Shown here: positions 28,034-64,000 of the stretch, in pieces
How the letters are laid out: every line of letters begins with the position of its first letter
Position numbering within the stretch: the first letter of the stretch is position 1
Translations under genes and position numbers: made by a program
The notes under the pieces: generated by a model
Databases searched by the model: none
What the model saw: only the letters and a program-made list of their open reading frames with translations
Told to the model about the DNA's origin: nothing
Assembly (NCBI GenBank): GCA_000091205.1
Contig: AP006490.2
DNA from: Cyanidioschyzon merolae
Lineage: Eukaryota
Strand: one strand, 5' to 3'
Length of the DNA: 64,000 nucleotides

Positions 28034-31000
28034 CGCAGACACTCGGAGAGCCACTTGCCCGCCCAGAACAGGTCGTGGAAAACAACAGCAGTTGTACCCC
28101 TTGCGAAACGCGAGCCGAATCCACGGCTTGAGATTGATTGATCGATCGCACTGGACCTGCCCCGACGTGGCGACCCGGTTCTAGAGACAACGAGCGGCGA
28201 GGAGGAGCGCTGGCTGCAGCGCACAGCCGGTGCTGGGCCTTGCTTTTCCGCTGATATCGAATAGACGAGTCTGTACCCATGTCAGAATGGAATAGAACAG
28301 ACCCTTGATGCTAACTCGGAAGTGCACTGTAAAGTAATAGTCTCTTCCCTATGTCAGCGACACCGGGCTTCGGGGAATTTTTCTACGACTGCTTCCTCTT
28401 TCTCACTTTTATCTCCGGGTTGAAATCTGCCGGTCCATTCTTTCCCTGTATCCCCATGGTCAGCACTTGGTGGATGTGGATTGCAGCGTTAAAGTTCCCG
28501 TTTCGCAGATTCCGGCTGTTGTAGACGCATTTGATGTTCAGGTGGTGCTTGGAATCCGCGCACCTCCTGTAAAGTTAATCTTCTTTGTACATAGCATCCT
28601 CTTGAACTTTGGATCGGTGCGACTTTGCCGTGGTCAGGTGTTCTGACACATCCACCATGCGTCGTCCGAGTTCCAACGTATCGTGCGTGAACGCTCGCAC
28701 CATCGCTCGGATTGCACCCTAGACGAGTCCATAAGGCGCTCATCGATGCCCTCCTCGGTTTCCGTACCTAGTTTAGTACCCTACGATCGCATGCTACTTC
28801 TTGCCGATTTGCTTGGCGAGAACTCTGTCCGCTAGAGGCGCAAACGCTTCCTGTCTTATTCGGTAAGGGATTTGCAGCGCGCGATCTTGTAAATAATGAA
28901 ACGAGTTCCGGACGAAAATTTCGGGCTGAATTACAAGTCAGGCATACTCGATCCCTCTACGCTTCCTTCCCGCAAAGCGGTAACGCAAGCTCTACTGGAA
29001 GCGATCGCTTCAGTGACTGAGTTCCGAGGTCAACACATTGTTCCATGCAAATAGCAGAGATAGACCTCTTTGGTACCGGGTCCCGTTATAGGCCCTTGCC
29101 GGTGCCGGATTCCGTCTCGTCGCTGGCCAATAACCGCGATGGATTCGTATTCCGAACGTAATCGATAATTCGATGCGACAAGGTCACTAGTATTTCCGCA
29201 TAAACGTGTAAAGTTGGCGTCAACGGGTCACGTCGAGTTCTCTCCTCGTCAATCGAGCGGCCGAATCGCTGCGGCGACGAGTTGCCCCGAAACTGAAAGA
29301 TCGAAACCGTAACCACTTCGTGATTTGAGCCTGGTAAATGTAAGGAACGAAATCAAATCGAGATTGACACGCACGAATTTGTCGATCATAGAGGTCATCT
29401 TCAGAAACCGAAGTAGAGCGCATCGAGAATCATCTTCATGCCGGTTACGCGGAGAATTACTCCCGCAAAAGATTTGAAGGAGCCACGCTGACCAGGCAAC
29501 CAAACATCCGAAATCCTAGTAGGAATCGATAGGCCCTTATTACTGGGCTTTGAATGTCGAGGCTGTATATTCCAGAATAGTTCGGAAACAAATTGAAAGG
29601 CGGGAACTGAGCGAGGAATTCGGTGTTCCATTTTTGTACAACGTAGGCATAGTGAGACGTATTTGTCCACGTGCAAACTTCGTCCATTTTGAAGCCCTTG
29701 AGGAACTTCAAACAGAAACGGAGACATATCTTATAATGAACACTGGCGGATTTTGCATCGAGACGTGTTCGACGCGCCCTCTCGCAGAGAACTGGACCCC
29801 AAAAGTACCGTACGGGTTATCCAATTGATGCTCAATAGCACAGCAAGTGCGATACGAGTATCATGGGCACTTAATTTGCGCTGGAACCTTGCTCCACTTC
29901 GAAACCGTAATGATCAAAGAGCCACTGTCTCTATGCTTTTAAAAGGATGAAAATGTGCGTACAGCTGCTCGTCAGATCGCTGAGAACAGCATGCAATGGT
30001 ATCGTCTTAGATTGGATGCAAAATCTGAACCAACTTATTCTTCGGGAAATCCTCCAATCCAGCGCGAAACTTCGGCATCTAGATATGCGAAACTTCCGAA
30101 TACAAGAGATAGTGTGGCGCGAGTCTTCCGGCCTGCAGGTCCGGACCTGCGTAAGCCTTGTTTTGCGCGTCAAACGATCTGTGAGCGCCCCAAGTATAAA
30201 GTTCGGTGCTCTCGTGCAGCACACATTCTTATAGGACCCTTACAGACCCGATATCAATTCTTTGTATTCATCTATCTATTCATGCTCTATACTGGCGCTT
30301 TTCCATGCTATGAGAACTCTGAATACGACACACAATTAACCAACCTCAAAGTTTGAACACGTTAGCGTGAGGAAGTTTCCAGTGGGATGCTGTGATTGGA
30401 GCACGCCTGGAATATATTAGTGTGTACATACCTAGCATATTACTCCAGAGTCATGGACTGGCTCAGAAACACCACTCGATGGGGTTTTCTGATATGAACG
30501 GATATCTGCCTCATCGGCAAGATATTGTGCTTCACATGTGATTCGCATACGATATGCGGATCGTTAGGCGCGAATACGCAAATGGGGAGGCTTCAGAGAC
30601 GCCACTAGCTGGCTCTCGGTGATTATTACAACGGCCGTGGCACAAATTTCGCGGAAAATGATTCTGAATTCGCTTCCAACAGCTTCCTGAGCGCCAGTCC
30701 CTAACCAGATACGAGCAAAGTGCCGCCTGACATATGCCGAATATTCTCTAAGCCCGCAACGGTGCGATCAAAATGTCCTTCGTCGCACGCGCTAGTTGCC
30801 AGGGTGCATTGCGCGCATTTCCCAAGCCCCCGACTTCGTGAACTGCATCGAAATATTTTTTGTTCTTCAAAATTTTTGGATAGGAATATGAGCGAGGCAG
30901 CGAAACTTAGTTTTCCGGGTAGTTCATTCAACAAGTAATTCTAGAACATTATAGGGTGTAAGTGGCCATGAAGAATAACTTTTGCGGTGGACTCTGCCTA

Positions 31001-31678
31001 ATTCTGGACGATCGCGCACCAATATATTGCGTCGGCCGCGGTCAGGGGCCACATCGGAAAGTGACTAGAACTTATCGGTGTTCCCAAAGAGGCGTCCGCT
31101 CTGTGGAAACCCGAACGTAAGGGCTCTCGAGCGGGGTGGTAGATGCCCCTTTACTTGTAGGCAAAAATCGCGCATCCGATCGGTCTTTTGATAGTCTCAC
31201 CGATCGCACGCCATGAAAGCAACTGTCCCCAGGTGGTACTTACATCCTGAATTGGCCCATGAAACCGGAAATGTTAACTCGGAGGCCCTGCTCGAATTTG
31301 CTGTGTGCTCAGCGGCCAAAGCGAATGCTCGCTCACCACACTGGGTGCTTTCACAGGATACTGAGTGCGTCGAGTTCTTGTTTCGGTTCCCTTGCTACAC
31401 TCAGAATAAAAACAGAGAATAAGAGACCAGAGCAAGCCTCTTAACGTGAAAGAGCACAATTTTTTCTCGGAACTCTTCTTGCCCGAAGGGTCCAACGTAA
31501 ATCATTGTCAAAAATACTCAGTGCCTGTCTTTCATAACTGAAAGAAGCAGATTGTTCTGGTGCAACTTTCCCTGTTAAGACAGTATCCCCATGCGACACA
31601 GCAACACGGCTGTCGATGAAACTAATAGTATCCATACCATAGGCAATATCCGAAACTGCCCCAGGTCAATAGCGTTAC

Positions 31679-32026
31679 TCAGACTGCTTCCAACACCACC
31701 GCTGTTCCATATGCAGTTACTTCGTTCATAAGATAACCAGCTCCTGAGCCAAACTCACTCGAATCGAAGCGCATGGCGAAGACCGCGTTTGCCCCCAGGG
31801 ACAGCGCATGCTTTGCTAGTTCCTGTAGAGCGTCATCACGTGTGGCAGAGATCATTTTAGTGTACCCGGGCTGCTTTCCACCACGCACCGCACGGAAGCA
31901 GCTCACCCAGTTGCCCCCTATGCTGCGGGTTCTCACTGATGTTCCGTAGACAGGACCGATGACACGAAGAACTCGCATGCCAGGGCAATCATTCGTGGTA
32001 AGGATGAGACACTGCTTCTCCGTCAT
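31679..32026 (-). CDS. YbjQ/DUF74 (UPF0145) family protein, bacterial-type
   Basis: 115-aa ATG-initiated ORF. LGANAVFAMRFDSSEFGSGAGYLMNEVTAYGTAVVLE and the N-terminal G..V.G pattern match E. coli YbjQ over its full length. Stand-alone in an 8-kb gene-poor stretch. Confidence 0.6.
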   Translation of the reverse strand: MTEKQCLILTTNDCPGMRVLRVIGPVYGTSVRTRSIGGNWVSCFRAVRGGKQPGYTKMISATRDDALQELAKHALSLGANAVFAMRFDSSEFGSGAGYLMNEVTAYGTAVVLEAV

Positions 32027-33739
32027 AAAAGCTCCAAAGGAATGATCCGTTTTCCCGTTAGTGCGGGCGACTTGCTAACCAACGGCTGTGACCGCAGCGC
32101 CAATCTGCATTGCGCTCGGCATTACTGGATCTCATGCGCAGCCCAGGATTCCGCATCTCGACGAGATGGATTTTTCCATCAACGCAGAGTTTTTGATGTA
32201 TTTTTTTCAGTACATGGTCTCCCGAACGCAACAATGGTGCGTGACGGACTATGGTGTCGTACCCAAACTTCTGCACTCGCATCCAACAAAGGAAAATGTA
32301 TTGCTGCAGTTATTGCGTTTCCGAACGGTGCGGGTGGCAGAAGATCGACGCGTGTTTGCTGTACAATTGAGTCGCTGAAAGGCTGAGTGCTCATTTGATC
32401 AACAGTATTATCGATTATCCCGGAGAAATTGCGTGAAAATTCTGGAAATGTGTGAGTTCAGGGGCCTTAACGGAACCCTAACGAGAAAAATGCATCAAGG
32501 TTACGTTCCAATTAGCGCTGCTTGGTGCAAGAGCGCTCTAGCCCGAAAATGTCAATGAGCCAACTAGATGTCTCGCAGTCTGGTGTCTAATACCGGCTCA
32601 ATTCTCTGTCCAGTTTTCGCACGTCGGGCGCAGAAGCCGGTGCAGCAAAAGCTGCCCCATTCTACGCCATGGGAATATATTACTTTTGCAGTTACTATGA
32701 ACACACTGGCTCGAGACGCATGAGCATTCGTGGAAACTGCTCAGAACCCCCGAATGAGACAAATTTTTCTAGTTCTGCAGATGCTCCGAACGACTCGTAA
32801 AATGCCCTCGCTTGCGGTGCTCAAATCGAGTGGAGACATGCTGCCGACGGATAAAAAAATGGTCAAGGCCATTGATCCAATGTACCCCTAGTGGACCTGC
32901 ATGCTTGTTTCGTACGAATCCATACAATAAACTAATAACGTGATTGTGCCCCGATCGAGAGCCATAATCAGAGGGAATGGCGATATTCCCCCAGATAGTA
33001 CCAACTTCCATGTAGAAGCAAAAGCAATGCCCACATACGAGTATGGTTTTGCGATTCGCAAGATTTCGAACCTAGCAGTGAGCGACCTATGCATGTAATT
33101 TCGAGTCAGCCGAATCTGTATCATTGCCATGAACTAGTTATGATGTGTTTACATAGGTAGCTTATTCGTGTAGATCGGGAATCGCGAAGCGTTCTAGACG
33201 ACAAATAGTTTGTATAGGCTCGTGCTCTACAGAGCTGAACAGGTCTATGAAGTCTATTATGGGTCATCTGAGCAGGTTATGAAAAGGCGTATGAAAGGTG
33301 CCTTGCGAAAAGGGTCCGGTGGTGCGGAGATGGTTAAGGACTTTGCTGCTGGAACGTTTAGGGCCACTACACGAAAGCTTCGTGGATTGTACCTACTGGT
33401 ATTCTTCGCCTGGTTTCGCATCATGCCTATACGACAAGCAATACGTAATTTATAACAGAAAAGTAAATTGAATTGAGCTCATTTGCTGAAAACCTTTCTA
33501 TGAAGAATACTATGTGGTTTCAGATGACAACGTTGAAGCGGTCGCTGTAAACAAAATAAGGCCTTTGTTAGAACGACGACTCTTGGTATCTGTTAATGAG
33601 GTACCACCTTTCAAACTCTGAGCGGTTTCGCTTATCATGCTCTCAAAAGCATTTAAGGTGGGTGCCGGCATTGACATCGTCTGTGTGAATATTTGCATTT
33701 TTCGTTGGACATAAAGGCGGCGGTCAATGATACAGACTG

Positions 33740-34450
33740 CTTCACAACTGTGGAGGGCAAATATGTCTCCCTACCCGCAGACCCGTCTCGCTCTTTTTCA
33801 ACCGGCGTCTTGCTATTGTTTTCAGCTTCTCCTTTTAACCTTCGAGTCTGGGAGACTGTCCGACAAAGTTGTCTCGCGTCAGCTCCTCGGGGCCCGACTT
33901 CAGCAGTATACATCGTCGGCTATTGATGGAGGCTTGAAGACTTAGTCCACGAATTCTATGCGTTCACTGCCTCAGGTGGAACTCATCTATGCAAGGATTG
34001 CTCGAACTCGAGCTCACTTTGCCGCCGCGGCCTCGTTATTGTCCAGTCGGGCAAGCCCTCTTTCACGACTTTCTCTCCCGTACTACTTCGTCGTCGTCAC
34101 TCATTCGTCTTCGCTCGATGGTTGGCAAGAAGAGGATTTTCGTCTTTTTCCTAGTCGCACGCGATGACGGCACTCCAGGATCTCAGACTTCCATTCCGAG
34201 AACATTCCCTTGGGTTTTTTGTTTTTGAAAATGAAATCACTTCGAACAAGTATGCTATAAACCTCGAGAAAGCATTTGATTATGCTCACCAGGGGGTGGG
34301 ACACAATTGAGGTGGAGGAATAAAATCCCTTCGTGGACGAATATCCGCTAACGGTTAGAGCTAGAATAAGAAAACCAATACGGAATTGAAGCCGTAAATG
34401 CCAGTGCATACTCTCCGATTCTCCACGCTTGATCCGCTTTTTCGCCATAT
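33740..34450 (-). mobile_element. Fanzor/TnpB-like element remnant (copy b), 5'-truncated
   Basis: Minus-strand frames match copies c and e: IIKCFLEVYSILVRSDFIFKNKKPKG vs IIKCFFAVYGGCIRSAFIFKHKKSKG, and YTAEVGPRGADARQLCRTVSQTRRLKGEAENNSKTPVEKERDGS vs the copy c tail. The 3' module on the minus strand (plus 33745-33805) reads GACGGGTCTGCGGGTAGGGAGACATATTTGCCCTCCACAGTTG. Confidence 0.5.
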
Positions 34451-35877
34451 GGAAACGCTCCGAGCATATGAGAAAAAATTGCTTTGCGAATGGCCATATC
34501 GAAAACGTTCCGAGAAAGCGTATCTCCTCAGGCGCTTAAACAGTTGTCTGAGAGCGTAAGACTACCACATCATCCCATTTATGCAAGTACACTACAATGG
34601 GAAGCTTTTTACAGCATTCCGGTAGCTGTCTCGCCTTGGATGGTATAAAAATGAGCAGTCGAATGTACGTGCTTCATCAACGGCAAGTACGCTTTGGAAT
34701 CGATAAAATATATAGCAAGTAAATTCTGAGACTTCTTTATCGAAAAGTCGACAACCCGTTTTTCATTCTCGAATATACGATTCATTGGGTGTTTGCTTCT
34801 GCGAAGATATGAGCCGATTAAAATGCACTCTTCCAGGGAACTAAGGAAGATGGAGAAACCCAATCAGCGGGCGACAGCTCGCGTTGGAGAATTCAAGACC
34901 AACTCAGAGGTTTTTCGCAGATCCACGTCACGACCAAGGCGCACTAAAAACAATTCTGAGAGCGGATTAAGAAATAAATGTTTCTCTTTGATGGAGTTTT
35001 TCTTGATCACTGAAATGCCGACCAGTGCCAAATAAAACATACTCCCGAAGGTGAATTCGTCAAAATTCGAATTCTAGCGGCAGGTACCGAAATATGAATC
35101 AGCGTTTTGGTGTGGTGCAAAACATATTTGTCTTTGGCTTCAAAGAAGAATTACCATGCCATGAAAGTGACCGTATTCAATACATCGGCCGCAGGCTCTC
35201 TTATTGGGCAGTCACCCGAGATAAGCGGAAGCGACGCGAGGTCGGCCGCACTGTAAGAGGTCCTGCGGATAAGCTCCGCCAGTTGCAATTAAATTTACCA
35301 GTAACTGGCTCGGCAACTTGAACGATCGATTTTTTCAACGAATAAAATGCTCGATTAAGCGATATATGCTGGTATCGAGTACTAATCGTTTATGGAGCGC
35401 ATCACAAAAAAGGATGCGAAACCGGTTACTATAGCAAAGAGATTACAGTCCGAAATATGCTTGAATACGCGCATGCTATTTGTATCAAAAATGAAAAATA
35501 GCTCTAGGATCTAGAGCGACACGGGACAGAATTCAGGAAAAAAGTAAAGCATTCCAGAGAGTTTCCCATTTTCAACTGAGAACCACCACCCAGAAAATCA
35601 TTCGCGTCAAGTCGATCTTAGGCTCTCGGAGGATCTCCTGTACCAATACTTACATAAATTTTGAAAAGCATTCTTCACGATCATTTCTTTCCATTAAATT
35701 TCAGGCTGTGAAGTAAATCCATACCCAGCTTTCTCTTGCCTCGACTTTTTCTGCGATACTACTCATCCACAGCCAAGAGATTAGTGAATACAGGACAGCA
35801 TTTCATCGAGTGGGGACGGAATGCATTCCAGCCAATGCAGAACAAGTTACTTCACGAGGATGCTTGAATTGTTACTC

Positions 35878-35920
35878 GCCGCTTGGCGGCAAAGTCCCTG
35901 GTAGGGTGTGTCTGCGCGTC
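35878..35920 (+). repeat. solo fragment resembling the element 3' module
   Basis: GCCGCTTGGCGGC hairpin followed by AAAGTCCCTGGTAGGGTGTGTCTGCGCGT. The same GG-AGG-GTGTCTGCGCGT core occurs at 3613-3635 in copy a. No adjacent ORF similarity. Confidence 0.3.
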
Positions 35921-36430
35921 CGAAGGCATCGGGTTTAAGAAATCGGGATCGGCCGCTACAAAACATCGCGCGTGCTCATCGAAATTCTATGTAAAAATTT
36001 GATTTAAAAATTCCCGGTGCCATAGCTTCGAGCAAACCCATACGATTTATTACCGCTAAACTGGTTCGATACAATGCCTTTGATTTAGAAATCATTTTAC
36101 GAAAAGGACGGCTTGTTCCCTGGGCTGCGGGCTTTGAATATTTCGCTGTTTTTTGGCAGAGTCGATTATCACATGCTGCCTGGATCACTGCATTTCGTAG
36201 GGGTGCTGGCTGGATGGCATCGTACTTTCTGTATTTAACCTGGATTGGAATAGCAGCGTGTTATTCACTTCGAAATGCTCGGGACGCTGACTTTTTTATG
36301 CACTCGTTAGCTGAACCACACGAGTTTTTAATCTTCCTCTTGCGCATATACTGGGAGTGCTGCATAAATTGGGGGACGTTCCGATCGCCCGCAAAGCGAC
36401 CAATTAATCAAATCCGTCTTGTGATTATTT

Positions 36431-45649: not shown

Positions 45650-46387
45650 GAGAGTTGGATAATGTTTTCGGTAATTTTGGGATCCCTTGTTCGTGGTCGT
45701 CGCGAAACATCTGGAGTCCGATGACTTGACAAATTCTGTCGGCAAAGTGTTGAAGGAGCCAACCTCAAAAGACAGCCGAGATTCTATAACGACGTATGAA
45801 TGCCAGAATCCTTCAAGTCTTTCACCTGAATTGCGTTCCAGCCTCAGGAGACTACAATCAAATGCTTTTTCATGGTTTATGGAAGATGAGTGCGAAGTGC
45901 GCTCATTTGAAGAAATAAAAATCCAAGGCAAAGGTATAGAAGTTGAAGCCCACGATCTTGGGGGCCCGCTGGCACCGGATTTGGAGAAACTACGAAAAAA
46001 AATCCTCATCTCGCCGACAATCTTGCGAAGAATAGCGAACGACGAAGAAGAAGAGAGGAGGTAGACGAGAAAAGGTGTTTGCCCTACTGGACAATGACGA
46101 GACTGTAGTGGCATATAGGTCACGAGTTCTAGCAATCCTTGCATTGATGAGTTCAACCAGAGGCAATAAACGTATGGAGTTCGTGAACCGAGACTTCAGC
46201 GTCGCGATCAATATCAGAACATGTGCGTTGCTTTACACGAGTCCCGAGAAGCTGGCCCAATTCCTTCTTCGTGGGACAACTTCTCAGGCTCGAAGTGTAC
46301 AAGGAGAAACTGAGACCGATAGCACTCGACCGGTCAAAAAGGACCGGGAGGTGTCTGCGTGTGGATATTAGTTACCCTACACGGTCG
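45650..46387 (+). mobile_element. Fanzor/TnpB-like element remnant (copy c), 5'-truncated
   Basis: ORF 46075..46371 carries an intact RuvC-III signature (GNKRMEFVNRDFSVAINIRTCA). The 3' module is CCGGTC-AAAAAG-GACCGG hairpin at 46330-46347, then GGGAGGTGTCTGCGTGTGG, ending ~46387. Frameshifted relative to copy d in its tail (46223..46507 frame). Confidence 0.55.
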
Positions 46388-46606: not shown

Positions 46607-48487
46607 ATGAAAGGAGAACGGAAACGCCCTCAGAGGCACGACAGGGACGCAGATAGAGAGCTGGCGTTGCGCCTCCACAACGAAGAAAAACAGGAGCTTC
46701 GAGGTTTGCGTCGCCAGACCCGAACTTCTGCGGATAAAGCTGTTGTGGAAGACGCAACAGTGATGGGTAGACCATGTGAGACAGTCACTGGATTGGATTC
46801 TTTTCTGAGCTCCTGTCTAAACGAAACAGGCCGACATTCACGCCCCCGAGCGAGCAGGAAAAGAACAGTTGAGAACGCTTTTGAGCATTTTTCTGTCGCA
46901 AAATATACAGAAAAGCATGCAAAACTCGAACCTCGCAAGCAAGGTACCAGCGCCCTACCCATAGACGAGATTCAGACTGTGCCAATCAAGGACCTCGATC
47001 AGTTTCCGAGCTGTGTTGGAGTTGCAGAGAACCAGAAAACCTCAAGCAGTCTTCGTAGGCAGATACGGGAGCAAATTAGGCGCTTGAATGATGGATACTA
47101 CATCAACTGTGATCTTCGTTACTTCAACCTTGCGTACTTGCGTGAATGTGTGGGGAATTTCGACGTGGTGCTCATTGATCCCCCGTGGCGCATCGCGGGC
47201 GGCCAGCGAGCGAGCACGCCGAATGGACCCATGTTCACCAATAATCACTGGGCAGTCAACTATAATACGTTGTCCAATGAAGAGATTCTGGATTTGGACA
47301 TTGGATGCCTCTCGAATAGTGGTCTCTGTTTCCTCTGGGTCGTCTCATCCCAGCTGCCAACAGGTATGGCCTGCCTCTCGCGCTGGGGCTACGAATACAT
47401 TGACAAAATCACGTGGATCAAGAAGCGCCAGGGGAAGCTCCACGTGAGCCACGGGTATCATTTCATGCATTCATCTGAATTGTGTCTCATTGGGGTCAAG
47501 CGGCCCTGCGAATTCATTGGAAAAGTTTCAAACGATCTCATTTTCGCAGAGGTGCGTGAAAAAAGTCGCAAACCAGATGAATTGTACCATGTTGTTGAGA
47601 CAATGCTTCCAGGTACTGCCAAGATAGAGCTTTTCGCTCGGAACCACAATATTCGCAGAGGCTGGCTGAGTTTGGGTAACGAGCTCGGTGAGCAGTTCTG
47701 CGACTGGTTCAATGACTTCGAATGTGACATGTGCGGAGCACGCATTCATTTCGGTGAGAGGCGGTACAAAGCGAAAAATCGACCCAATTCGGACTTTTGT
47801 CGGGACTGCTATCTGGAAGCAATTTCCGCAGGAGTGACAACGGAAACAGAGTGGTTCGAGCTGGCTAATGATGCCGCAGATCCTGTCTATCATGAGTACT
47901 ACGAGTGCAATCATTGCAACATCTATCCCCTTTGGGGAGTCCGCTTTCATAGAGACCCAGACATGGATCTTTGTGAGCAGTGCTATGATGAGCTGGTAGC
48001 CAATGACGCGGAAACAGAGGATGCGTCCAATAATGCACGCACCAGCAGCCCTGACGACTGGACTGCGATCGAGTCTCCTATTTGCGGCGGCTCGTTACCT
48101 GTCCACCGCAATATTCGCTGTTCATCCTGCCTCCAGTGTCCGATCATTGGATACCGCTTCTCATGCACCTGCTGCGAGAATTTAAGCTTGTGTCAAAAAT
48201 GCTTCTTTCAACAAAAATGCCCCAAAGGGCACAATGCAGATCATGACATAGTGATCATTGTCGATTCTGAGGCCGCACTGAACGCGCTTGTTCGGTGCGA
48301 TGGATGTGGAATTCGCCCCATCCTTGGTACGCGATACAGATGCAATACCTGTTACGCCTTTGACCTGTGTGAGACGTGTTACAAGAAAGTTGAGCAAGGA
48401 GAATACGATTTGCAACAGGTTTCTCAAAAGAAGTTAGCGGAACACAATCGATCTCACGCGTTTTCAGCGATTCCCGTCTCAGCCTGA
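46607..48487 (+). CDS. MT-A70 family adenine-N6 methyltransferase fused to four C-terminal ZZ-type zinc fingers
   Basis: MT-A70 core with catalytic DPPW (NFDVVLIDPPWRIAGG) and downstream blocks (LCFLWVVSS, ITWIKK, ELCLIGVKR, ELFARNHNIRRGW). It is followed by four C-x2-C...C-x2-C ZZ modules (CDMCGARIHFGERRYKA...CRDCY; CNHCNIYPLWGVRFHRD...CEQCY; CSSCLQCPIIGYRFSCTCCENLSLCQKCF; CDGCGIRPILGTRYRCNTCYAFDLCETCY). The track start at 46574 is GTG immediately after an in-frame TGA; the first ATG is at 46607. Confidence 0.85.
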   Translation: MKGERKRPQRHDRDADRELALRLHNEEKQELRGLRRQTRTSADKAVVEDATVMGRPCETVTGLDSFLSSCLNETGRHSRPRASRKRTVENAFEHFSVAKYTEKHAKLEPRKQGTSALPIDEIQTVPIKDLDQFPSCVGVAENQKTSSSLRRQIREQIRRLNDGYYINCDLRYFNLAYLRECVGNFDVVLIDPPWRIAGGQRASTPNGPMFTNNHWAVNYNTLSNEEILDLDIGCLSNSGLCFLWVVSSQLPTGMACLSRWGYEYIDKITWIKKRQGKLHVSHGYHFMHSSELCLIGVKRPCEFIGKVSNDLIFAEVREKSRKPDELYHVVETMLPGTAKIELFARNHNIRRGWLSLGNELGEQFCDWFNDFECDMCGARIHFGERRYKAKNRPNSDFCRDCYLEAISAGVTTETEWFELANDAADPVYHEYYECNHCNIYPLWGVRFHRDPDMDLCEQCYDELVANDAETEDASNNARTSSPDDWTAIESPICGGSLPVHRNIRCSSCLQCPIIGYRFSCTCCENLSLCQKCFFQQKCPKGHNADHDIVIIVDSEAALNALVRCDGCGIRPILGTRYRCNTCYAFDLCETCYKKVEQGEYDLQQVSQKKLAEHNRSHAFSAIPVSA

Positions 48488-49192: not shown

Positions 49193-50011
49193 TCAGGAAA
49201 CAGCTGACTTCACAGCAGTTTCATTTTTCTGAGAACTTTCAACCTTTTCATCCTTTTCTAGAGACCCCGGATTCCGTTTGTGAAGGAATCGCGAAAGATG
49301 CTGCGGCTTGAGAGTCCAGACCGCCTGATTGCCTACCACGACCGTTTCGAAATAGTCATTGAGCGCAAGTGTATGCCGGATCGCGCTTTTAATCCACATG
49401 TGGTCGTGGACATTTGGATGCAGCTCGAACACGCGGTCGACTATGTCGTCATAGAGCATTCTATGCCCCTCCGCAGAAGCGATGAGTTCACCGAGGTATT
49501 GTGGCAAGTCGTTGATGAGGCGCTGAGAAATCTTGCTCTCCGTAAGCGGTGCTCGATGCCCTCCTTGCTCACTCTGAGCCATAGTAAGAGGCGTCTTGTA
49601 CCGCAAGTCTGCACCGCCTAGTTTCTTCCTTTTCCGAGGTCCAAGTCCTTTCGCGCAAGGCAGGAGAAACCAAAGCGTACAAGAGCCGGCCTGCAGAACG
49701 TCCTGGCTTCGAAGCTGAACAGGTGCGCTATTCGGGCAAACGAACGATCCGTTCACTTCCATCCCGTTTTTCCCCTGAACAAATAGTTCGAAACTCTGCA
49801 TATCTACGTTCAACGCGATTGTTGCGTGGATTCGGGACACTGCACGGTCCCGAGAGGGCAACCATAAGGTATACTCCGAAGCCAACCCAGCAGTTTTGTT
49901 GCTGCTTCGACCTATGGTCAAAGTAGGCTTGGTCATATAGTGACTTTGTGACTCGGTTATGATTTTCGCATAGAGTATAGCTGGAACTTTCGTCTCTGCT
50001 AAGTACGGCAT
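49193..50011 (-). CDS. FHA-forkhead transcription factor (Fkh1/Fkh2/Fhl1/FoxK-like architecture)
   Basis: N-terminal FHA: TLTIGRSS...AVSRIHATIALN...FELFVQGKNGMEVNGSFV. C-terminal forkhead domain: YLGELIASAEGHRMLYDDIVDRVFELHPN...MWIKSAIRHTLALNDYFETV...AVWTLKP, which matches W-x-N-S-I-R-H-N-L-S-x-N-x-x-F and the GKG-x-x-WTL-x-P wing. The track start is TTG at 50030-50032; the first ATG is at 50011. Confidence 0.8.
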   Translation of the reverse strand: MPYLAETKVPAILYAKIITESQSHYMTKPTLTIGRSSNKTAGLASEYTLWLPSRDRAVSRIHATIALNVDMQSFELFVQGKNGMEVNGSFVCPNSAPVQLRSQDVLQAGSCTLWFLLPCAKGLGPRKRKKLGGADLRYKTPLTMAQSEQGGHRAPLTESKISQRLINDLPQYLGELIASAEGHRMLYDDIVDRVFELHPNVHDHMWIKSAIRHTLALNDYFETVVVGNQAVWTLKPQHLSRFLHKRNPGSLEKDEKVESSQKNETAVKSAVS

Positions 50012-50031
50012 TAGTGCCCTCGCGAACGCCA

Positions 50032-51501
50032 ATGACTAAACGACAATTGGCACTGTATATCGCGGTTTCCATGAAAGTGCTCCAAAGCTGTCGCTTCGGC
50101 CAGTTGCGAAAACTTTTGTTGATTATCGTGCTCGCTATTTACATAAGAGCGTCCATAGGCCTCTTCCCTTACTCTGGAGAGCACAGACCTCCAAGATTCG
50201 GAGACTATGAAGCGCACCGTTACTGGAGCGCAGTGACGCTGCACATGCGGCCAGTTGCGAACTGGTATACGCATCCCGGTGACTACTGGGTTATAGACTA
50301 CCCGCCCCTATCCGCTTATTTGGCTTTCGCTATTGGCATTTGCGCAAGACTTTTAGATTTTGAGGGCGCGGTGCAAGCCGACGCCTACGGTTACGAGAGC
50401 GAGTCGAGTCGTGCTTTCTTCCGGGGGACTGTGCTGCTTGTAGACTTGCTGTTCTTTTTCCCAGCAGCATATTTCGCGTCTGGTGGCGATCTCAACCGCT
50501 TTGCGTCCCTTACCCTGTTTCAGCCCTGCTGGATTTTGATCGATCATGCCCACTTTCACTACACATGTATCCAGCTAGGTTTCATCCTATGGATGATCGC
50601 GCGATATCGCACAATCAAGCTCACTATGATAGCGACAGCGGTGCTCTTCAAGCAGACATCCATCTACTTCCTGCCCGTCCCTGCAATGGACGCGCTGCGA
50701 CAGGCATGGAGGCGAGCGTTCCCAGACAACGATGTCCTTTTTTCCGTTCTTGTTGCTCTTTTCATCCTGTACCCGTTCAAGTTGGACGCTTTGTTAAGGA
50801 GGGTGTTCCCATTTCATCGAGGCGTTTTCGAGGACAAGGTAGCAACGTTTTGGTGTACAATATCGCCGCTGCTGCGTCGAACTGGGCTCCTACGGAGCAG
50901 GTTTCTGCCCCCAGCCTGCGGGCTCATGACCCTAGTGGCAGTTATCCCGTTTCTTATGGGCTCACCGGGTCGTTGTATTACGGAAAGCGATCGTCTTCGG
51001 CTATGTATTCGACTCACAGGGTGCTCGCTTGCGTTCTATCTTTTCTCGTACCATGTTCATGAGAAGCATATTCTCCTACCACTTTTGCCGCTATCGTTAT
51101 GTGCCCATGAGTATCCTGATATCATCATTTGGGCCACTTCCACGGCAGTATTCTCTCTCCTGCCTCTGTTTTTGCATGAAGGCTCAGCGATGGCGCTAGT
51201 AGCGCTGATAATTTGGACGTGTTTAGGAAGAGGTCGCCGTCCTTCTGTAGCCTGGATGCTTCTCGCCCTTCCTCTTGGAATACTTCTCGCTGTTGACGGG
51301 AATCCTTTTCGGGAACGTTATCCGTACTTGCTTCCTTACTTCGTTGCAATCTTCTGCTTCCTGAACTTTCTTATGCTCCTGCTTTGGTGTTACAAAGAGC
51401 ACGCAAAGTTGTCGGGTTGCTCTTTCACTGTCGAGGGCGCTCGGAACTTGTTGTTTCGCTCCTTGAATTTTTCGAGGGCTCCGCCACAAAAACTCTCATA
51501 A
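50032..51501 (+). CDS. ALG6/ALG8-family dolichyl-P-glucose glucosyltransferase (GT57)
   Basis: Multi-TM protein with GDYEAHRYW, WVIDYPPLSAY, LIDHAHFHYTCIQLGF and YHVHEKHILLPLLPLSL, matching ALG6/ALG8 signature blocks in order. The track start at 50014 is GTG; the first ATG is at 50032. Head-to-head with the FHA-forkhead gene: their first ATGs are ~20 bp apart. Confidence 0.8.
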   Translation: MTKRQLALYIAVSMKVLQSCRFGQLRKLLLIIVLAIYIRASIGLFPYSGEHRPPRFGDYEAHRYWSAVTLHMRPVANWYTHPGDYWVIDYPPLSAYLAFAIGICARLLDFEGAVQADAYGYESESSRAFFRGTVLLVDLLFFFPAAYFASGGDLNRFASLTLFQPCWILIDHAHFHYTCIQLGFILWMIARYRTIKLTMIATAVLFKQTSIYFLPVPAMDALRQAWRRAFPDNDVLFSVLVALFILYPFKLDALLRRVFPFHRGVFEDKVATFWCTISPLLRRTGLLRSRFLPPACGLMTLVAVIPFLMGSPGRCITESDRLRLCIRLTGCSLAFYLFSYHVHEKHILLPLLPLSLCAHEYPDIIIWATSTAVFSLLPLFLHEGSAMALVALIIWTCLGRGRRPSVAWMLLALPLGILLAVDGNPFRERYPYLLPYFVAIFCFLNFLMLLLWCYKEHAKLSGCSFTVEGARNLLFRSLNFSRAPPQKLS

Positions 51502-56422: not shown

Positions 56423-57252
56423 CTAGACAAGACGTCTCCAACTTACGTACAGACGCCTCCCAGTCTCTTTCGACCGGCCACCCACTACTGGTTCCAACTT
56501 TTTCTCATATAATCCTACCTTAAGCGGTTGTCCAACAAAATATTCTCTTGTCAACTCCGGAGGTCTTCTTTCCATCACCGCACATTTCCTTATATTGATA
56601 GCGGCGTTAAAGTTTCGATTCACAAACTGCATGCGTTTCTTGCCATTGGTAGTTGGACTCACTAGTGCAAGTAGTCCACGAACTTTCGTCCTCCTTTCCA
56701 CTTGCTCTTTCGTCAGCGCTCCGAACATTTTTATATCCTCAGGGGTCTGCTGGCACTTTTCATCTCCAATCTCTGACGTTTACACCCCAATTGGTGGTGT
56801 GTATTGGTCGTTCGGAACTCATCTATCGGTATCGTGACGAAACGGTATGCGCACTCCTTGTACGCTCGTGTCGTTGGAGATGGCGCACACCTTTTTTTCG
56901 ACGCCCAGCGCCTTGCTCCGTATGCCACTACGAGCCTCTGACTCTTGTGCTCCTTCAGGGCGCTCAACTGATTGAAAAAGTTCGCGAGCGCGCGCCGCTT
57001 CCCACAATACAGGTTCACACGCAGAGGAGCCCACCGGCGATTTGTATACTCTTTCCACAGCGCCTCCCAATGAGCAGCGCGAACTTCCATGAATTTCAGA
57101 AAAGTCTGAAAGTCCGCTCCGCGGCTCGTCACCTCGCTCATAGCTTCCAGGTGGTCCTTCATTCCTTCGTTCCACATCTCGATTTTCTTCCTCGCATTCA
57201 TCATACCGGATTCTCGATAGTATCTCGCTCTCGAGAGCTTTAAAAGACGCAT
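56423..57252 (-). pseudogene. Fanzor1/TnpB-like RuvC nuclease C-terminal region (RuvC-II + RuvC-III), frameshifted or intron-containing
   Basis: ORF 56731..57252 ends ...QRLVVAYGARRWASKKRCAPSPTTRAYKECAYRFVTIPIDEFRTTNTHHQLGC. This aligns with ISDra2 TnpB, as I recall it, at ..VVEDL...LEYKAKWYGRELIIADRFFPSSKLCSNCG. The canonical RuvC-II E is replaced (VVAYG) and a D-E sits in the pre-zinc-finger IDEF position, which matches the Fanzor1 pattern. ORF 56423..56728 carries GKKRMQFVNRNFNAAINIRKCA (RuvC-III, D/N-x-NAA-x-NI). The two ORFs are in different frames, and the zinc-finger cysteines are largely missing. Confidence 0.6.
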
Positions 57253-58556: not shown

Positions 58557-59698
58557 GCAGCATGTGACATCGGACCTCCTGCATCTGCTTCTTCGTTTTC
58601 TCGTGTTCCTCTTTGCTCGGCGCGGTTTTTCTTTTTTTCCCGGCGGCCGGCAACATCGGCCCTTCAGGATCCCGACTTGCATGTGCGCTGCTTTCCTTTG
58701 GCGTTTTTATTTCGTCAAGATGATCGCACGTCTTCTTGCTCTTAGATGGGGCCTTCTCGGAGGGAGGGGGACTTTCGCAAGAAAAGCGACATGTGCCCCC
58801 ATGTTTTAGCGTGTGCAGAACGCTCAGCGATTTACCCAGCGCAGTGTTCATCAAAATTCTCGATAGAAAACGCTCCTTAGATGCGGCCGAACCACGGCGT
58901 GTACGAAGTAATGAGAAGCAACCCTATCCCTACAGATTCGGCAAAGACTCGAACGCAAGGGGAACGGTAAAACATCACGTTGCCCGACAGAGGGATGTTT
59001 CCAGACGTCAGGGGAAGAGTCTGCAATGATTCGACGCAGTGGTCGGTACCGTTGTATGACCGCTATCTACGAGCGAAGCTGAGGCCACCAGATGAATCCA
59101 CTCCACCCGTACCAGATGATATTCTCGTTCTCTTTGAGTTCGATCATACACACTATGGGCGCCCTGCTCCGCGAATACCCATGTACGCTCCGACAGTATC
59201 GTCCGAAGCAAGTCTCATTGACTAGAAAAACAAATCGATGCCCCTGCGCTTCAAACCGATCGCGACGATCCGAAGACGCTGTTGTTGCGATGTCGTTGGA
59301 CGATGGCCGAGCGTGAAATTGGTATTCGTTTTTCCGACTGTATCGCAGTGATTTCAGGACCACACGAACAAGCTGGTGAGTAAGAGAGACACCCGTTGTG
59401 GCTTCTATCATCGCTTTTGCCTTCCACGCGGTGATGAATCGGTTGTTTTTTACCACGGACCCCAAGCACGCTTTGTGAATATCGGTTTTTTGATACGGAG
59501 CGGGTGTAGTGGTTTCTTTCGGTGTTCCTCAACCAGCTGAGTACTCTCGAAAGACTGACCTGAAGGAGGAATACATTACTTGCACGCTTCAGTCAAGGAT
59601 ATATATCCTACATGCAAATCGCCTATGTTCTATACGGTACATTGCAGAGTGATATCGATCTCCTCCTATACACTGCAGCAGGGGTGAAACGTAATTGA
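58557..59698. repeat. left arm of a long inverted repeat (identical at the protein level to 62859..64000)
   Basis: All ORF pairs mirror with x+y=122557 and identical translations: 59251..59532 with 63025..63306, 59067..59465 with 63092..63490, 59092..59316 with 63241..63465, 58980..59225 with 63332..63577, 58736..59029 with 63528..63821, and 58372..58809 with 63748..63993. The inner junction, checked base by base, is TCAATTACGTTTCACCCCTGCTGCAGTG. The arm probably extends further left; the window end limits the comparison. Confidence 0.9.
59067..59465 (-). pseudogene. Tc1/mariner-like transposase fragment (in left inverted-repeat arm)
   Basis: ...ITAWKAKAMIEATTGVSLTHQLVRVVLKSLRYSRKNEYQFHARP...HRFVFLVNETCFGRYCRSVHGYSRSRAPIVCMIELKENENIIWYGWSGFIWWPQL shows an HTH followed by the DDE_3 first-D region. 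The first D is mutated to N (NET, against DDT in the 2578 copy). Truncated. Confidence 0.5.
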
Positions 59699-59996
59699 GT
59701 TGAAAGAGCGCAGCTGGGAACATCGACTGTGTCGCAGTTCGCGCGCCCTGTACCGCCATTGAAATCATCGCGATCGCCGCGCTAGCGCGGGACACCATCG
59801 ATCCGATCCGCATGGCAGCTCGCGGGACGTCATCGATCCAACGGAAAACTATTTTTCGACGGACTGCTCGCATCATGAGGGTCTTTGAGAGCCTCAAATA
59901 TTAGGCTGAAGTGAAGTTTCGCTAACAATTTGGGTCCTTGCTGCTTTAAGTTGAGGTGTTTTGGTTTAGTGAGCACCTCATCTTGGGACGAATTGG

Positions 59997-62300
59997 ATGA
60001 TCCCCCGAAAACTTCCAACCAGCGAAACTCGATCGAAGCCTCCGAGCTTCGGCCATAGAGCTGGACAACGTCACCGCACGCAGCTTGTGGAACGTCAGGG
60101 AGGTCAGGAGTGGAAACACGATCATTTGGGAGAGTCCACAGAAGGCCGGTCGGTTTGTTCCTGTGAAGCTTGCCGGACACTGAGCCTAGCCGGTTTCCCG
60201 AACAGCAGCAACAGCAGCAACAGCAGCAACAGCAGCAGCAGCAGCCTCTCTGAGCTCGAGGACCGTCCACAGTGTATTGGTGGCTACTCTAGTTCTAGTG
60301 GTGGGGCCGCAGAAGGAGTCGATCAATACGTATGGGAACTGCATGAGGGTTTCAATATGGGGACACCAACCCAAACAATACAGCGTCCTGCTGAGTGTCC
60401 TAGCTTCGGTTACGGTGCTTTTCGTTCCAGACGAGCAGACTCTGGAAGCGAGCCCCTTGCTAATGAACCACTCGAAACCATGCGGGACCTCTCCATTCAT
60501 GATGCCGCGTCTCATGATACGCAAAAGCTGCCATCGATGAAGCACCGCGCTGGAGACGTGAGCTCAGTTACTGTTCCGTCAACGAATGCTAAATTTGCGG
60601 TAGCAGGGCATTCGGATGCACCGAAAATTTTCAGTTCTCCTGAGGCGGAAGCACGCCTACTGCCCTGTAGCTCATACGCAGACTCGGCTACAACGGGCTC
60701 TTCTTCATTGCATGAAGGCTTGGTTCAGCTTGATGTTGTCGATTATCGAATGCGCATAGTCTCGAAACAAATTTCGAGCAGCATGCCTGTCTACGAAACT
60801 AGGCAACTCTCAACGTCCCGCGCGAGTTCTCGGAACACGGCGGTGCTTGGACGTCTCTGGTCAGTCGCGTCACTTGGAGTCAACAGACCTAATGAGGACC
60901 GTTGGCACGTAGAACGCCAGCGTCTGATATGCGATTTCCAGTCATACGCGCCTTTCAAGCTTTCGCAAGCCAGTCTAAGATCTGAGGCGGGCACAAGCTC
61001 GGTCGCCGCTCTCAAAAGCGTGAAATGCAGCGGATCGGCTGTGGGTTTCACACGACCAGCAACTCCGCCTGGGAGTCACGATGTGGCAGAGTGTGAAGTC
61101 GCTGACTGCGACAGCGGTTTCGAATCTGATGACTCGTTTACGGTGGGCTTGTTTGATGGACACGAAGGAGCCACGTGCTGCGAGCTAGTTGGCGAACTGC
61201 TTCTAGAAACGATTCGAGACCGATGCACTAAGAATGGAAAATATACGACTATGCTCCAGGAGCTTGGAATTGAAGGCTTTGCAAGATGTCTGATAGAGAC
61301 GTTTGAATTTGTCGACAAGAAGATCCTGGAGCTCCTCTGGGAACATCTAGAGCGAAGTGGCGACGGACATTTTGCAATAACAGGAGCCTGTTGCATAACA
61401 GCAACGCTGATGAATGGTGGAAGGGATCTCTTCGTTGCCTCGCTAGGAGACTGTGAGGCCTATTTGGGCCGTCGATGTTGCGCGGCTGCGGAGCTCCCGC
61501 ATCCTCAAGAAGGAGCGAATAAGCGTATGGCTCGAAAAAATTTCGAAGCGATTCGGCTGTGTCGCTCACATAATCTTCGAATCAGCGAGAATTCGAAAGC
61601 TCTCATGGAGCGGTTTCCCAACGATCCCTCCGTAGTGCAGAAAATAGGCAATAATTTTTTCGTCAAAGGCAAGCTGCAGGTATCGCACGCCTTTGGAAAT
61701 GGATACCTGAAAGAGCAAAGATTCAACGAGCGACTCTACCCTATTTTTAGGGCGAAGTCACCTTACTGTGGAGGATACGTGTCCGCAACTCCGCATGTTG
61801 AGCATGTGTCCTTGATGGATCGGGACGAATTTCTGATTTTAGGAACGGATGGATTCTGGGAGAACGCTGAACCAGAGGTAGTCGTCGAGCTTTTGGGTCA
61901 CTTTTTTCACGATCGGGAGATTCTGGAGGGGAATCTAGACCAGATCTCAATAGATCCAAGAAGGGCAAGCGAGCTCTTGATGCAGTACGTGTGGCTTCGC
62001 CTCCACGACAGTATAGAACCCGCGAGCTTGCGTACAGCGGGCCAGACTGGTGGCAAAAGCAGTGGAAGCTGTGCTGCTGAGCCGCGCCCTCAGCTTCGTG
62101 ACGACTGCTCAGTTCTGGTTTTATTCCTCCGTCCAACGGAGATCGGGGATGCAGAAGAAGCCATATCATACACAGGCAATATGGATTGTACAGATTTTTG
62201 TGAGCAACTAGATGGTGATACCAAGGAGCGCATTCAACGTCTGCGAGCATCGATTTCCGAATGGATGCGCACATATGGCGAGCATTCCGATGAAATATGA
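59997..62300 (+). CDS. PP2C-family Ser/Thr protein phosphatase with long disordered Ser/Asn-rich N-terminal half
   Basis: 767 aa with a confirmed ATG. PP2C motifs in the C-terminal half: FTVGLFDGHEGATCCELV, LFVASLGDCEAYLGRR, QVSHAFGNGYLK, FLILGTDGFWENAEPE. The N-terminal half is low-complexity (NSSNSSNSSNSSSSS). Lies entirely within the 3.16-kb spacer between the inverted-repeat arms. Confidence 0.85.
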   Translation: MIPRKLPTSETRSKPPSFGHRAGQRHRTQLVERQGGQEWKHDHLGESTEGRSVCSCEACRTLSLAGFPNSSNSSNSSNSSSSSLSELEDRPQCIGGYSSSSGGAAEGVDQYVWELHEGFNMGTPTQTIQRPAECPSFGYGAFRSRRADSGSEPLANEPLETMRDLSIHDAASHDTQKLPSMKHRAGDVSSVTVPSTNAKFAVAGHSDAPKIFSSPEAEARLLPCSSYADSATTGSSSLHEGLVQLDVVDYRMRIVSKQISSSMPVYETRQLSTSRASSRNTAVLGRLWSVASLGVNRPNEDRWHVERQRLICDFQSYAPFKLSQASLRSEAGTSSVAALKSVKCSGSAVGFTRPATPPGSHDVAECEVADCDSGFESDDSFTVGLFDGHEGATCCELVGELLLETIRDRCTKNGKYTTMLQELGIEGFARCLIETFEFVDKKILELLWEHLERSGDGHFAITGACCITATLMNGGRDLFVASLGDCEAYLGRRCCAAAELPHPQEGANKRMARKNFEAIRLCRSHNLRISENSKALMERFPNDPSVVQKIGNNFFVKGKLQVSHAFGNGYLKEQRFNERLYPIFRAKSPYCGGYVSATPHVEHVSLMDRDEFLILGTDGFWENAEPEVVVELLGHFFHDREILEGNLDQISIDPRRASELLMQYVWLRLHDSIEPASLRTAGQTGGKSSGSCAAEPRPQLRDDCSVLVLFLRPTEIGDAEEAISYTGNMDCTDFCEQLDGDTKERIQRLRASISEWMRTYGEHSDEI
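60201..60246 (+). repeat. (AGC/CAG)n-type trinucleotide microsatellite inside the PP2C coding region
   Basis: AACAGCAGCAACAGCAGCAACAGCAGCAACAGCAGCAGCAGCAGC encodes NSSNSSNSSNSSSSS. The opposite strand gives the poly-Cys artefact ORF 59830..60270. Confidence 0.8.
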
Positions 62301-62858
62301 ACATCAGCACAAACCTGAAGATGCAGCCAGTCGTGCATATTGTGAAGCGGTCTTCTCGTTCCTAGTTGTTACTGCAGGAGATTGCTTGTCCGGCTGATGC
62401 TGGGTCTCACGTATGTTAAGGGCGAGAGCAATCAAAGTGTAACCTCCGTCGAATGACAAAGGGAGCGCAACGATTGCACCTCTGTGGAACGCGGAACTCA
62501 CTGCTCTCAACGCTTCGCAGAACGACGTGGGCCATCAGCTCGGTGCGCATGTTTGCTTTGCAGCTCTCGAGAATCAAATGAACTGCTGGCGTAGCGCAAA
62601 ATAGTGCCCAATTCGCGCGCTAGTGCTTGCGTAAATTTACAAATCGTCGGGATAGAGAATTTCTCAAGTCGGCGTCAGAACAGCCCGTTCTGCCACAATC
62701 CTACACGGTGCAGCTCCACATAAAACCCTTTTCCCAACCGATCCACGAATCCGACAAGACTTTTGCTCACTTGTGGCGCAATTCTGCGAAACATGGACTG
62801 AGCAAAGGAGAAGAAGGAGCCTGTCGCTTATTCTCGTGTACAACTAACGTCTTTCGAA

Positions 62859-64000
62859 TCAATTACGTTTCACCCCTGCTGCAGTGTATAGGAGGAGATC
62901 GATATCACTCTGCAATGTACCGTATAGAACATAGGCGATTTGCATGTAGGATATATATCCTTGACTGAAGCGTGCAAGTAATGTATTCCTCCTTCAGGTC
63001 AGTCTTTCGAGAGTACTCAGCTGGTTGAGGAACACCGAAAGAAACCACTACACCCGCTCCGTATCAAAAAACCGATATTCACAAAGCGTGCTTGGGGTCC
63101 GTGGTAAAAAACAACCGATTCATCACCGCGTGGAAGGCAAAAGCGATGATAGAAGCCACAACGGGTGTCTCTCTTACTCACCAGCTTGTTCGTGTGGTCC
63201 TGAAATCACTGCGATACAGTCGGAAAAACGAATACCAATTTCACGCTCGGCCATCGTCCAACGACATCGCAACAACAGCGTCTTCGGATCGTCGCGATCG
63301 GTTTGAAGCGCAGGGGCATCGATTTGTTTTTCTAGTCAATGAGACTTGCTTCGGACGATACTGTCGGAGCGTACATGGGTATTCGCGGAGCAGGGCGCCC
63401 ATAGTGTGTATGATCGAACTCAAAGAGAACGAGAATATCATCTGGTACGGGTGGAGTGGATTCATCTGGTGGCCTCAGCTTCGCTCGTAGATAGCGGTCA
63501 TACAACGGTACCGACCACTGCGTCGAATCATTGCAGACTCTTCCCCTGACGTCTGGAAACATCCCTCTGTCGGGCAACGTGATGTTTTACCGTTCCCCTT
63601 GCGTTCGAGTCTTTGCCGAATCTGTAGGGATAGGGTTGCTTCTCATTACTTCGTACACGCCGTGGTTCGGCCGCATCTAAGGAGCGTTTTCTATCGAGAA
63701 TTTTGATGAACACTGCGCTGGGTAAATCGCTGAGCGTTCTGCACACGCTAAAACATGGGGGCACATGTCGCTTTTCTTGCGAAAGTCCCCCTCCCTCCGA
63801 GAAGGCCCCATCTAAGAGCAAGAAGACGTGCGATCATCTTGACGAAATAAAAACGCCAAAGGAAAGCAGCGCACATGCAAGTCGGGATCCTGAAGGGCCG
63901 ATGTTGCCGGCCGCCGGGAAAAAAAGAAAAACCGCGCCGAGCAAAGAGGAACACGAGAAAACGAAGAAGCAGATGCAGGAGGTCCGATGTCACATGCTGC
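62859..64000. repeat. right arm of the long inverted repeat (second, inverted copy of the Tc1-like/Fanzor-like element; truncated by the window edge)
   Basis: Mirror image of 58557..59698. Contains the Tc1-like fragment (63092..63490 +) and the start of the KRKT-rich ORF (~63703 onward, open to the window edge). Confidence 0.9.
63092..63490 (+). pseudogene. Tc1/mariner-like transposase fragment (in right inverted-repeat arm)
   Basis: Amino-acid sequence identical to 59067..59465 on the opposite strand. Confidence 0.5.

Follow-up and report, generated by a model that had tools for sequence, protein, structure and literature searches.

Gene structure and domain organization

The 64,000-nucleotide stretch of Cyanidioschyzon merolae DNA analyzed here (contig AP006490.2; hereafter, the window) carries an uninterrupted plus-strand open reading frame (ORF) that starts at position 46574 (GTG) or 46607 (ATG), ends at 48487, and encodes an MT-A70 methyltransferase followed by an array of ZZ zinc fingers. 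Its product was identical at 626/626 residues to the C. merolae 10D protein BAM79731.1/XP_005536017.1, which is entitled "similar to (N6-adenosine)-methyltransferase" in the database; the window is therefore nuclear DNA of C. merolae. The features of the gene are listed below with their amino acid (aa) ranges.

46607..48487, plus strand: complete intronless coding sequence of an AMT2/5-type MT-A70/ZZ protein, from the ORF list (626 aa plus stop, counted from the ATG)
46607..47080, plus strand: N-terminal region (aa 1-158), basic (isoelectric point [pI], 9.75), mostly low-confidence helices, blank in the family consensus
47081..47689, plus strand: MT-A70 methyltransferase domain (aa 159-361; Pfam core, 185-359), from Pfam, PDB phmmer, and Foldseek
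47177..47188, plus strand: catalytic DPPW motif (aa 191-194), read directly; invariant in 52/52 family members
47633..47641, plus strand: F343-A-R345, the "FxR" S-adenosylmethionine (SAM)-binding motif; F in 52/52 and R in 50/52 of the family
47711..47842, plus strand: ZZ1 (aa 369-412), a one-zinc variant with only the Cys4 site C373, C376, C398, C401
47891..48016, plus strand: ZZ2 (aa 429-470), with only the first zinc site C434, C437, C456, C459, and a D452-M-D454-L-C motif
48104..48247, plus strand: ZZ3 (aa 500-547), two-zinc and canonical (C505/C508/C520/C523/C529/C532/H542/H546), acidic pocket residues absent
48281..48460, plus strand: ZZ4 (aa 559-618), two-zinc and canonical (C564/C567/C579/C582/C588/C591/H613/H617), with C-D565-G-C and D586-L-C

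MT-A70 and ZZ were the only Pfam families detected in the whole protein (E ≤ 1). The same domain content was present in all of the relatives listed, both in the orthologues from Cyanidiococcus yangmingshanensis (66% identity), Cyanidium caldarium (53%), and Galdieria (48%) and in more remote proteins of approximately 40% identity from Naegleria, Willaertia, and many other protists. No recognized domain was found in aa 1-158 by Pfam at the same threshold; the AlphaFold2 (AF2) predicted local distance difference test (pLDDT) score was mostly below 60 in this region. A scan with hidden Markov models in all six frames revealed no second MT-A70 gene within the 64-kb window.

The combination of an MT-A70 domain with several C-terminal ZZ fingers is therefore real, well above what chance would give, but it is already known. 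The original prediction had implied that this architecture was new; it instead defines the published AMT2/5 subclade, and RefSeq contains the exact protein. Iyer et al. reported the architecture in 2015-2016 and had C. merolae among the species of their tree (PMC4738411), and the AMT2/5 subclade was named in 2019 in the classification of Wang et al. (PMC7145601). The family scheme of a 2025 Nature Genetics survey recognizes six MT-A70 families (PMC12695648), and in the supplementary table C. merolae has a score of 1 for AMT1 and for AMT2/5 and of 0 for each of AMT6/7, METTL3, METTL14, and METTL4.

Phylogenetic position of the MT-A70 domain

To place the C. merolae protein, 138 MT-A70 domains (189 columns) were analyzed in a distance-based neighbor-joining tree with 200 bootstraps. 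The sequences comprised 67 ZZ-bearing proteins (including those of Galdieria, Cyanidium, Cyanidiococcus, Naegleria, and Willaertia, two from Paramecium, and one from Ichthyophthirius), 16 AMT1 proteins (including Tetrahymena MTA1, PDB 7f4l, and Galdieria phlegrea AMT1), 33 METTL3-type proteins (including human METTL3, PDB 5l6d, and those of plants, fungi, animals, and protists), and 22 prokaryotic MT-A70 proteins. The ZZ-bearing proteins of Paramecium and Ichthyophthirius served as the ciliate anchors in place of Tetrahymena AMT2/AMT5. All 67 ZZ-bearing proteins, including that of C. merolae, formed one clade (195/200 bootstraps). The AMT1, METTL3, and prokaryotic clades were each recovered in 200/200 bootstraps, all without the C. 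merolae protein. The gene is thus the C. merolae 10D orthologue within AMT2/5, a subclade of the eukaryotic MT-A70 methyltransferases.

Pairwise identities of the domain averaged 58% to the ZZ clade, compared with 39-42% to human METTL3 and 35-38% to Tetrahymena MTA1. An AMT1 orthologue was considered and ruled out: true AMT1 orthologues share 50-79% identity with Tetrahymena MTA1 (54% for G. phlegrea AMT1), the C. merolae domain only 35%, and it lies outside the fully supported AMT1 clade. METTL3 orthology was likewise ruled out by the tree together with the absence of CCCH fingers, and a firm grouping of the core with the mRNA N6-methyladenosine (m6A) writers, named in the original prediction as a ground for refutation, was not observed.

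AMT1 orthologues are present in Galdieria (XP_005705595.1). A search for the C. merolae AMT1 sequence with G. phlegrea AMT1 yielded only Galdieria orthologues and one metagenome protein. The latter is an AMT1-type MT-A70 protein of 344 aa, DPPWQLATANPTRGVA, with 63% identity to G. phlegrea AMT1, encoded at positions 3001-4035 of a contig in JGI metagenome 3300041539. The metagenome contigs that carry this protein are intronless; this one has a GC content of 54% and a CpG observed/expected (o/e) ratio of 1.07, and the protein is possibly the AMT1 of the Cyanidioschyzon/Cyanidiococcus lineage.

Catalytic domain and the question of an RNA substrate

The DPPW-type MT-A70 core proposed in the original prediction was confirmed by a Pfam match covering positions 1-172 of the 172 in the profile (PF05063, aa 185-359; E = 9.9e-36). 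The full-length AF2 model built with the family alignment had a pLDDT of 73, with confident MT-A70 core and ZZ regions and low confidence in the N-terminal ~145 residues and in a family-specific loop at aa 197-219. This loop corresponds to a 17-residue insertion after DPPW, with the consensus MFSN, here MFTN. The FxR motif separates active AMT2 from eroded AMT5, in which the corresponding motifs are of the APPF and FTK type (PMC12077518). With both DPPW and FxR intact, the C. merolae protein is of the AMT2 type and, judged by these residues, is predicted to be catalytically competent.

The names "IME4" and "N6-adenosine-methyltransferase" raise the alternative that the protein is an RNA m6A methyltransferase that replaces the METTL3-METTL14 pair. 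Similarity of the catalytic domain agrees with this as well as with a DNA enzyme: in PDB phmmer searches, it matched human METTL3 (E = 1.1e-37; 133 bits; 42% identity) as well as the DNA enzyme MTA1/AMT1 of Tetrahymena (2.8e-36; 128 bits; 35%), METTL14 matched much more weakly, and the METTL3 methyltransferase domain was the best structural match in Foldseek (TM-score, 0.80). The census scores no METTL3 or METTL14 in C. merolae (PMC12695648), and there is no AMT2/5 enzyme with a biochemically proven substrate. However, the protein lies outside the METTL3 clade in 200/200 bootstraps and, according to the published census, has no METTL14-type partner. It also lacks the CCCH fingers that METTL3 needs for RNA binding (PMC7145601): none was detected by Pfam in the whole protein at E ≤ 1, and among the 158 N-terminal residues there are just three Cys, with no arrangement of the CCCH type. 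Moreover, ZZ domains bind protein rather than RNA, and the only genetics available for the family concerns N6-methyladenine (6mA) in DNA. We therefore regard an RNA writer as quite unlikely.

Zinc sites and candidate ligand of the ZZ array

A canonical ZZ domain is a cross-brace that holds two zinc ions, one in a Cys4 site and one in a Cys2His2 site. In ZZ domains that read protein N-termini, the free amine sits in an acidic pocket, to which the first CxxC knuckle contributes an Asp and the segment before the third Cys pair a D-x-D. We called the zinc ligands from the Cys/His pattern together with a 52-sequence family alignment. Pfam recognized ZZ (PF00569) in four separate stretches (E = 1.2e-22), the best of which was 562-595, and AF2 modeling and Foldseek also gave ZZ matches, so the ZZ assignment made in the original prediction stands. 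Its count of four fingers holds for the Pfam stretches and the folded modules; the full set of eight ligands occurs only in ZZ3 and ZZ4.

The two remaining modules lack the ligands of the second zinc site. In ZZ1, the second-site CxxC is replaced across the family by a basic R-Y-K-x-K/R stretch (here R-Y-K-S-R), within which K388 is invariant. In ZZ2, position 449 is R in C. merolae and Cys in 47/52 relatives, and the other ligands of the second site, one Cys and two His, are missing as well. The four second-site ligands of ZZ2 have disappeared jointly from the proteins of Cyanidioschyzon, Cyanidiococcus, and Cyanidium and from two related metagenome proteins, whereas the site is kept in Galdieria and other eukaryotes; by its distribution in the alignment, this is a lineage-specific loss. 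The family-wide one-zinc state of ZZ1 and the loss of the second site of ZZ2 in one lineage, both read from aligned residues, are minor new details. These losses would mark the affected parts as dispensable for the role of the array.

Despite the missing ligands, all modules were predicted to fold. When modeled alone, the array formed four high-confidence beta-beta-alpha modules (pLDDT, 88.4; predicted TM-score [pTM], 0.77); ZZ1 reached a pLDDT of 95-98, and the one-zinc modules were still folded at values above 90. Judged by pTM without the predicted aligned error, the model suggests that the four modules pack into one compact body instead of being strung out as separate beads. Foldseek matches of the array were the ZZ domains of HERC2 (TM-score, 0.80), BIG, PRT1, and p62, all of which have been crystallized with N-terminal peptides bound. 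At the sequence level, ZZ4 matched HERC2 ZZ in the PDB (E = 7e-10), in addition to the PRT1, BIG, p62, and dystrophin ZZ domains, and the best PDB match of ZZ2 was the ZZ domain of ZZZ3, a histone H3 reader (E = 1e-4). Residues at the acidic pocket positions are D374 and D396 in ZZ1; N435, D452, and D454 in ZZ2 (D454 in 48/52 sequences); and D565 and D586, with Ala at position -4, in ZZ4; ZZ3 has none.

The array is acidic in C. merolae (pI, 4.9; net charge, -16). We considered this charge as a family-wide argument and dropped it, given a family median of -3. The 2025 survey describes these ZZ domains as "of unknown function" (PMC12695648). The array is most plausibly a recruitment or partner-binding module whose ligand would be a protein N-terminus or a basic tail rather than DNA. 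Histone H3 is the obvious candidate, but H3-tail reading, which the original prediction suggested, stands as an inference only and is not supported.

It is also conceivable that the array contacts DNA directly or that the substrate is something other than a nucleic acid adenine. "Binding the target DNA molecule" is one of the possibilities that Wang et al. list for the ZZ fingers (PMC7145601), and the invariant basic stretch that replaces the second zinc site of ZZ1 would suit such a contact. The acidity of the array in C. merolae argues against direct DNA binding, as do its close structural matches, all of which are peptide-binding ZZ domains; DPPW, moreover, is the signature of adenine-N6 methylation. 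We consider these options very unlikely.

Proposed function

In the Tetrahymena work, AMT2 and AMT5 are genetically required for de novo 6mA in DNA, and AMT2 needs its DPPW motif (PMC12077518). By analogy, the C. merolae protein is probably a nuclear SAM-dependent N6-adenine methyltransferase of the AMT2 type that acts on DNA and lays 6mA de novo, with a ZZ array that targets the enzyme or binds a partner. Nuclear DNA as the substrate and a 6mA-establishing role are most likely because of family membership and the Tetrahymena genetics; that 6mA occurs in this alga is likewise inferred. In this scheme, the AMT2/5 protein would methylate adenine N6 in nuclear DNA using SAM and thereby lay 6mA de novo in the manner of Tetrahymena AMT2/AMT5. 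Propagation of the mark at ApT would then be the task of AMT1, the maintenance enzyme, and the ZZ array would recruit the AMT2/5 enzyme or bind a partner by way of a protein N-terminus, for example that of histone H3.

Instead of writing independently, the protein might pair with AMT1 as a heterodimer subunit in a lineage devoid of AMT6/7, with the ZZ array docking on AMT1 or its cofactors rather than on chromatin. MT-A70 enzymes act as heterodimers, and both C. merolae and Naegleria are scored as AMT1 = 1, AMT2/5 = 1, and AMT6/7 = 0 (PMC12695648). That survey notes that AMT2/5 and AMT1 occur together, "hinting at a potential partnership," and a possible interaction between the ZZ fingers and AMT1 was suggested by Wang et al. 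(PMC7145601). Nevertheless, the known non-catalytic partners METTL14, AMT7, and AMT5 have eroded motifs, whereas DPPW and FxR are strictly conserved here. In addition, Tetrahymena AMT2/5 is dispensable for maintenance 6mA. A pure partner role is thus unlikely in our view. A broader version, in which AMT1 and AMT2/5 would form a minimal two-enzyme DNA 6mA system in C. merolae, with the acidic ZZ array reading the H3 N-terminus and recruiting an enzyme that serves either as the de novo writer or as the dimer partner of AMT1, is a doubtful possibility.

Several observations weigh against a de novo DNA methyltransferase with an N-terminus-reading ZZ array. In the in vitro and in vivo experiments reported for Tetrahymena, AMT2 and AMT5 alone were inactive, and missing components were inferred by those authors (PMC12077518); biochemical activity has been shown for no AMT2/5 protein. 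Our literature search found no reports of 6mA in Cyanidiophyceae. The tree is a neighbor-joining tree without Tetrahymena AMT2/AMT5, METTL14, METTL4, or AMT6/7, and it does not settle the order of the eukaryotic clades (ZZ with AMT1, 100/200; ZZ with METTL3, 64/200; METTL3 with AMT1, 36/200). In sequence, the catalytic domain is slightly nearer to METTL3 than to AMT1. As for the array, its strong acidity is not shared across the family, and the acidic positions for N-terminus binding are only partly kept, with good retention in ZZ1 and ZZ2, none in ZZ3, and variable retention in ZZ4. Because the Asp two residues ahead of the third Cys pair also belongs to the general ZZ consensus, these positions are compatible with N-terminus reading but are not proof of it.

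As a discovery, the significance of this gene is limited: it is in RefSeq, its architecture has been published since 2015-2016, the family is named and has a genetic function in Tetrahymena, and the one C. merolae copy has been scored. Its value lies rather in the tractability of C. merolae for questions concerning the ZZ ligand, the AMT2/5 substrate, and nuclear 6mA in Cyanidiophyceae. If the two-enzyme arrangement were true, C. merolae would be the simplest system for finding the ligand of the AMT2/5 ZZ array because of its 16-Mb genome, routine gene targeting, and lack of CpG depletion.

Genomic context

CpG was not depleted in the window (o/e, 1.13), as the original prediction had noted from codon usage; TpA had an o/e of 0.65. 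The absence of CpG depletion says nothing direct about 6mA. The neighbors of the methyltransferase gene are ordinary housekeeping genes, encoding TIP49/RuvBL, RF-1, an FHA/forkhead-like protein, ALG6/8, and PP2C. A dispersed repeat lies upstream, and two of its copies are given below.

45823..46387, plus strand: degenerate, stop-broken copy of the dispersed repeat ("Fanzor-like copy c"), outside the gene, found by self-blastn
56423-57252, minus strand: best-preserved copy, which reads "IDEFRTT" and FVNRNFNAAINIR

The upstream copy ends approximately 220 bp ahead of the ATG at 46607. It belongs to a family of 290-550 bp with further copies at 3374-3659 (plus), 18510-19063 (plus), and 33773-34325 (minus), which share 67-73% DNA identity in self-blastn. 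The translation of the upstream repeat carries a TnpB/Fanzor-like "FVNRDxxxAINIR" motif. The broken frames include RMEFVNRDFSVAINIR, and RuvC-like motifs are found across the family ("IDEFRTT," FVNRNFNAAINIR, and FVNRDFSVAINIR). No Pfam match to Fanzor/TnpB was obtained in four of the six frames, in the repeat ORFs, or in the copy at 56423-57252, and the latter also gave no such PDB phmmer match. The placement of a repeat directly upstream of the gene was thus correctly predicted, but its Fanzor identity was not confirmed by Pfam or the PDB and amounts to a resemblance of motifs; from these motifs, the repeat is plausibly a degenerate Fanzor-like remnant. No functional link between the repeat and the methyltransferase gene is indicated. 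Several repeat copies sit just upstream of plus-strand genes (3740, 19340, and 46607).

Other features were observed in the window. A 1151-bp inverted repeat (58557-59707 and 62850-64000; 99.8% identity) flanks a PP2C phosphatase ORF (59997-62300), and the same 132-aa ORF, MGSVVKNNRFITAWKAK, is present in both arms. The window contains one more copy of the arm, at 2290-3191, with 71% identity and a 110-aa ORF related to that of the arms. The inverted repeat could be a recent duplication or the terminal structure of a mobile element around a host gene. A region of ~8.4 kb (28055-36430) contains no ORF of at least 134 aa in an otherwise gene-dense, intron-poor genome; its GC content is 0.45-0.50 versus 0.51 for the window, it includes the repeat copy at 33773-34325 and possibly represents an island of decayed repeats or transposons. 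A tandem repeat with a period of ~139 bp and copies of 90-93% identity lies at the start of the window (83-502). Finally, a 279-aa ORF on the minus strand (49193-50032) faces the methyltransferase gene tail to tail and shares 19 bp at its 5' end with the beginning of the ALG6/8 ORF; it matches the FHA domain (E = 5e-8) and, weakly and below the Pfam cutoff, the forkhead domain (E = 2.6e-4).

Comparison with known systems

The closest known counterparts of the C. merolae protein are Tetrahymena AMT2 (TAMT-1) and AMT5, with which it shares the presence of several ZZ fingers C-terminal to an MT-A70 domain; its DPPW and FxR motifs are intact, as in AMT2. In the tree, in which the Tetrahymena sequences are not included, it falls in one clade with the ZZ-bearing proteins of Paramecium and Ichthyophthirius. 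Unlike Tetrahymena, C. merolae has a single copy without an eroded AMT5-like paralogue and has no nuclear dualism, and the second zinc site of ZZ2 has been lost in Cyanidioschyzon, Cyanidiococcus, and Cyanidium.

Tetrahymena MTA1/AMT1, which acts in the MTA1c complex with MTA9/AMT7, p1, and p2, has the same DPPW-bearing MT-A70 fold and is linked to DNA 6mA. However, it belongs to a separate clade and lacks ZZ fingers, and its signature is DPPWQLAxANPTRGVA; the true cyanidiophycean AMT1 proteins are other proteins, such as Galdieria XP_005705595.1. Human METTL3 (Ime4 in yeast) is the best match of the catalytic domain in both sequence and structure, and the SAM-binding residues are conserved between the two. 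The C. merolae protein differs from METTL3 in its position outside the METTL3 clade, in the absence of CCCH fingers, a leader helix, and (by the published census) a METTL14 partner, and in the 17-residue family-specific insertion after DPPW.

The ZZ array resembles the ZZ domains of HERC2, p300, and ZZZ3, which bind the H3 tail, and those of p62/SQSTM1, PRT1, and BIG, which bind N-degrons, with ZZ4 most similar to HERC2 and ZZ2 to ZZZ3. ZZ2 retains the acidic C-D/N-x-C and D-x-D-L-C positions of these N-terminus readers, and ZZ1 and ZZ4 do so in part. In contrast to these domains, the C. merolae array consists of four tandem modules that are predicted to form one rigid unit (by the pTM given above), two of them being one-zinc variants.

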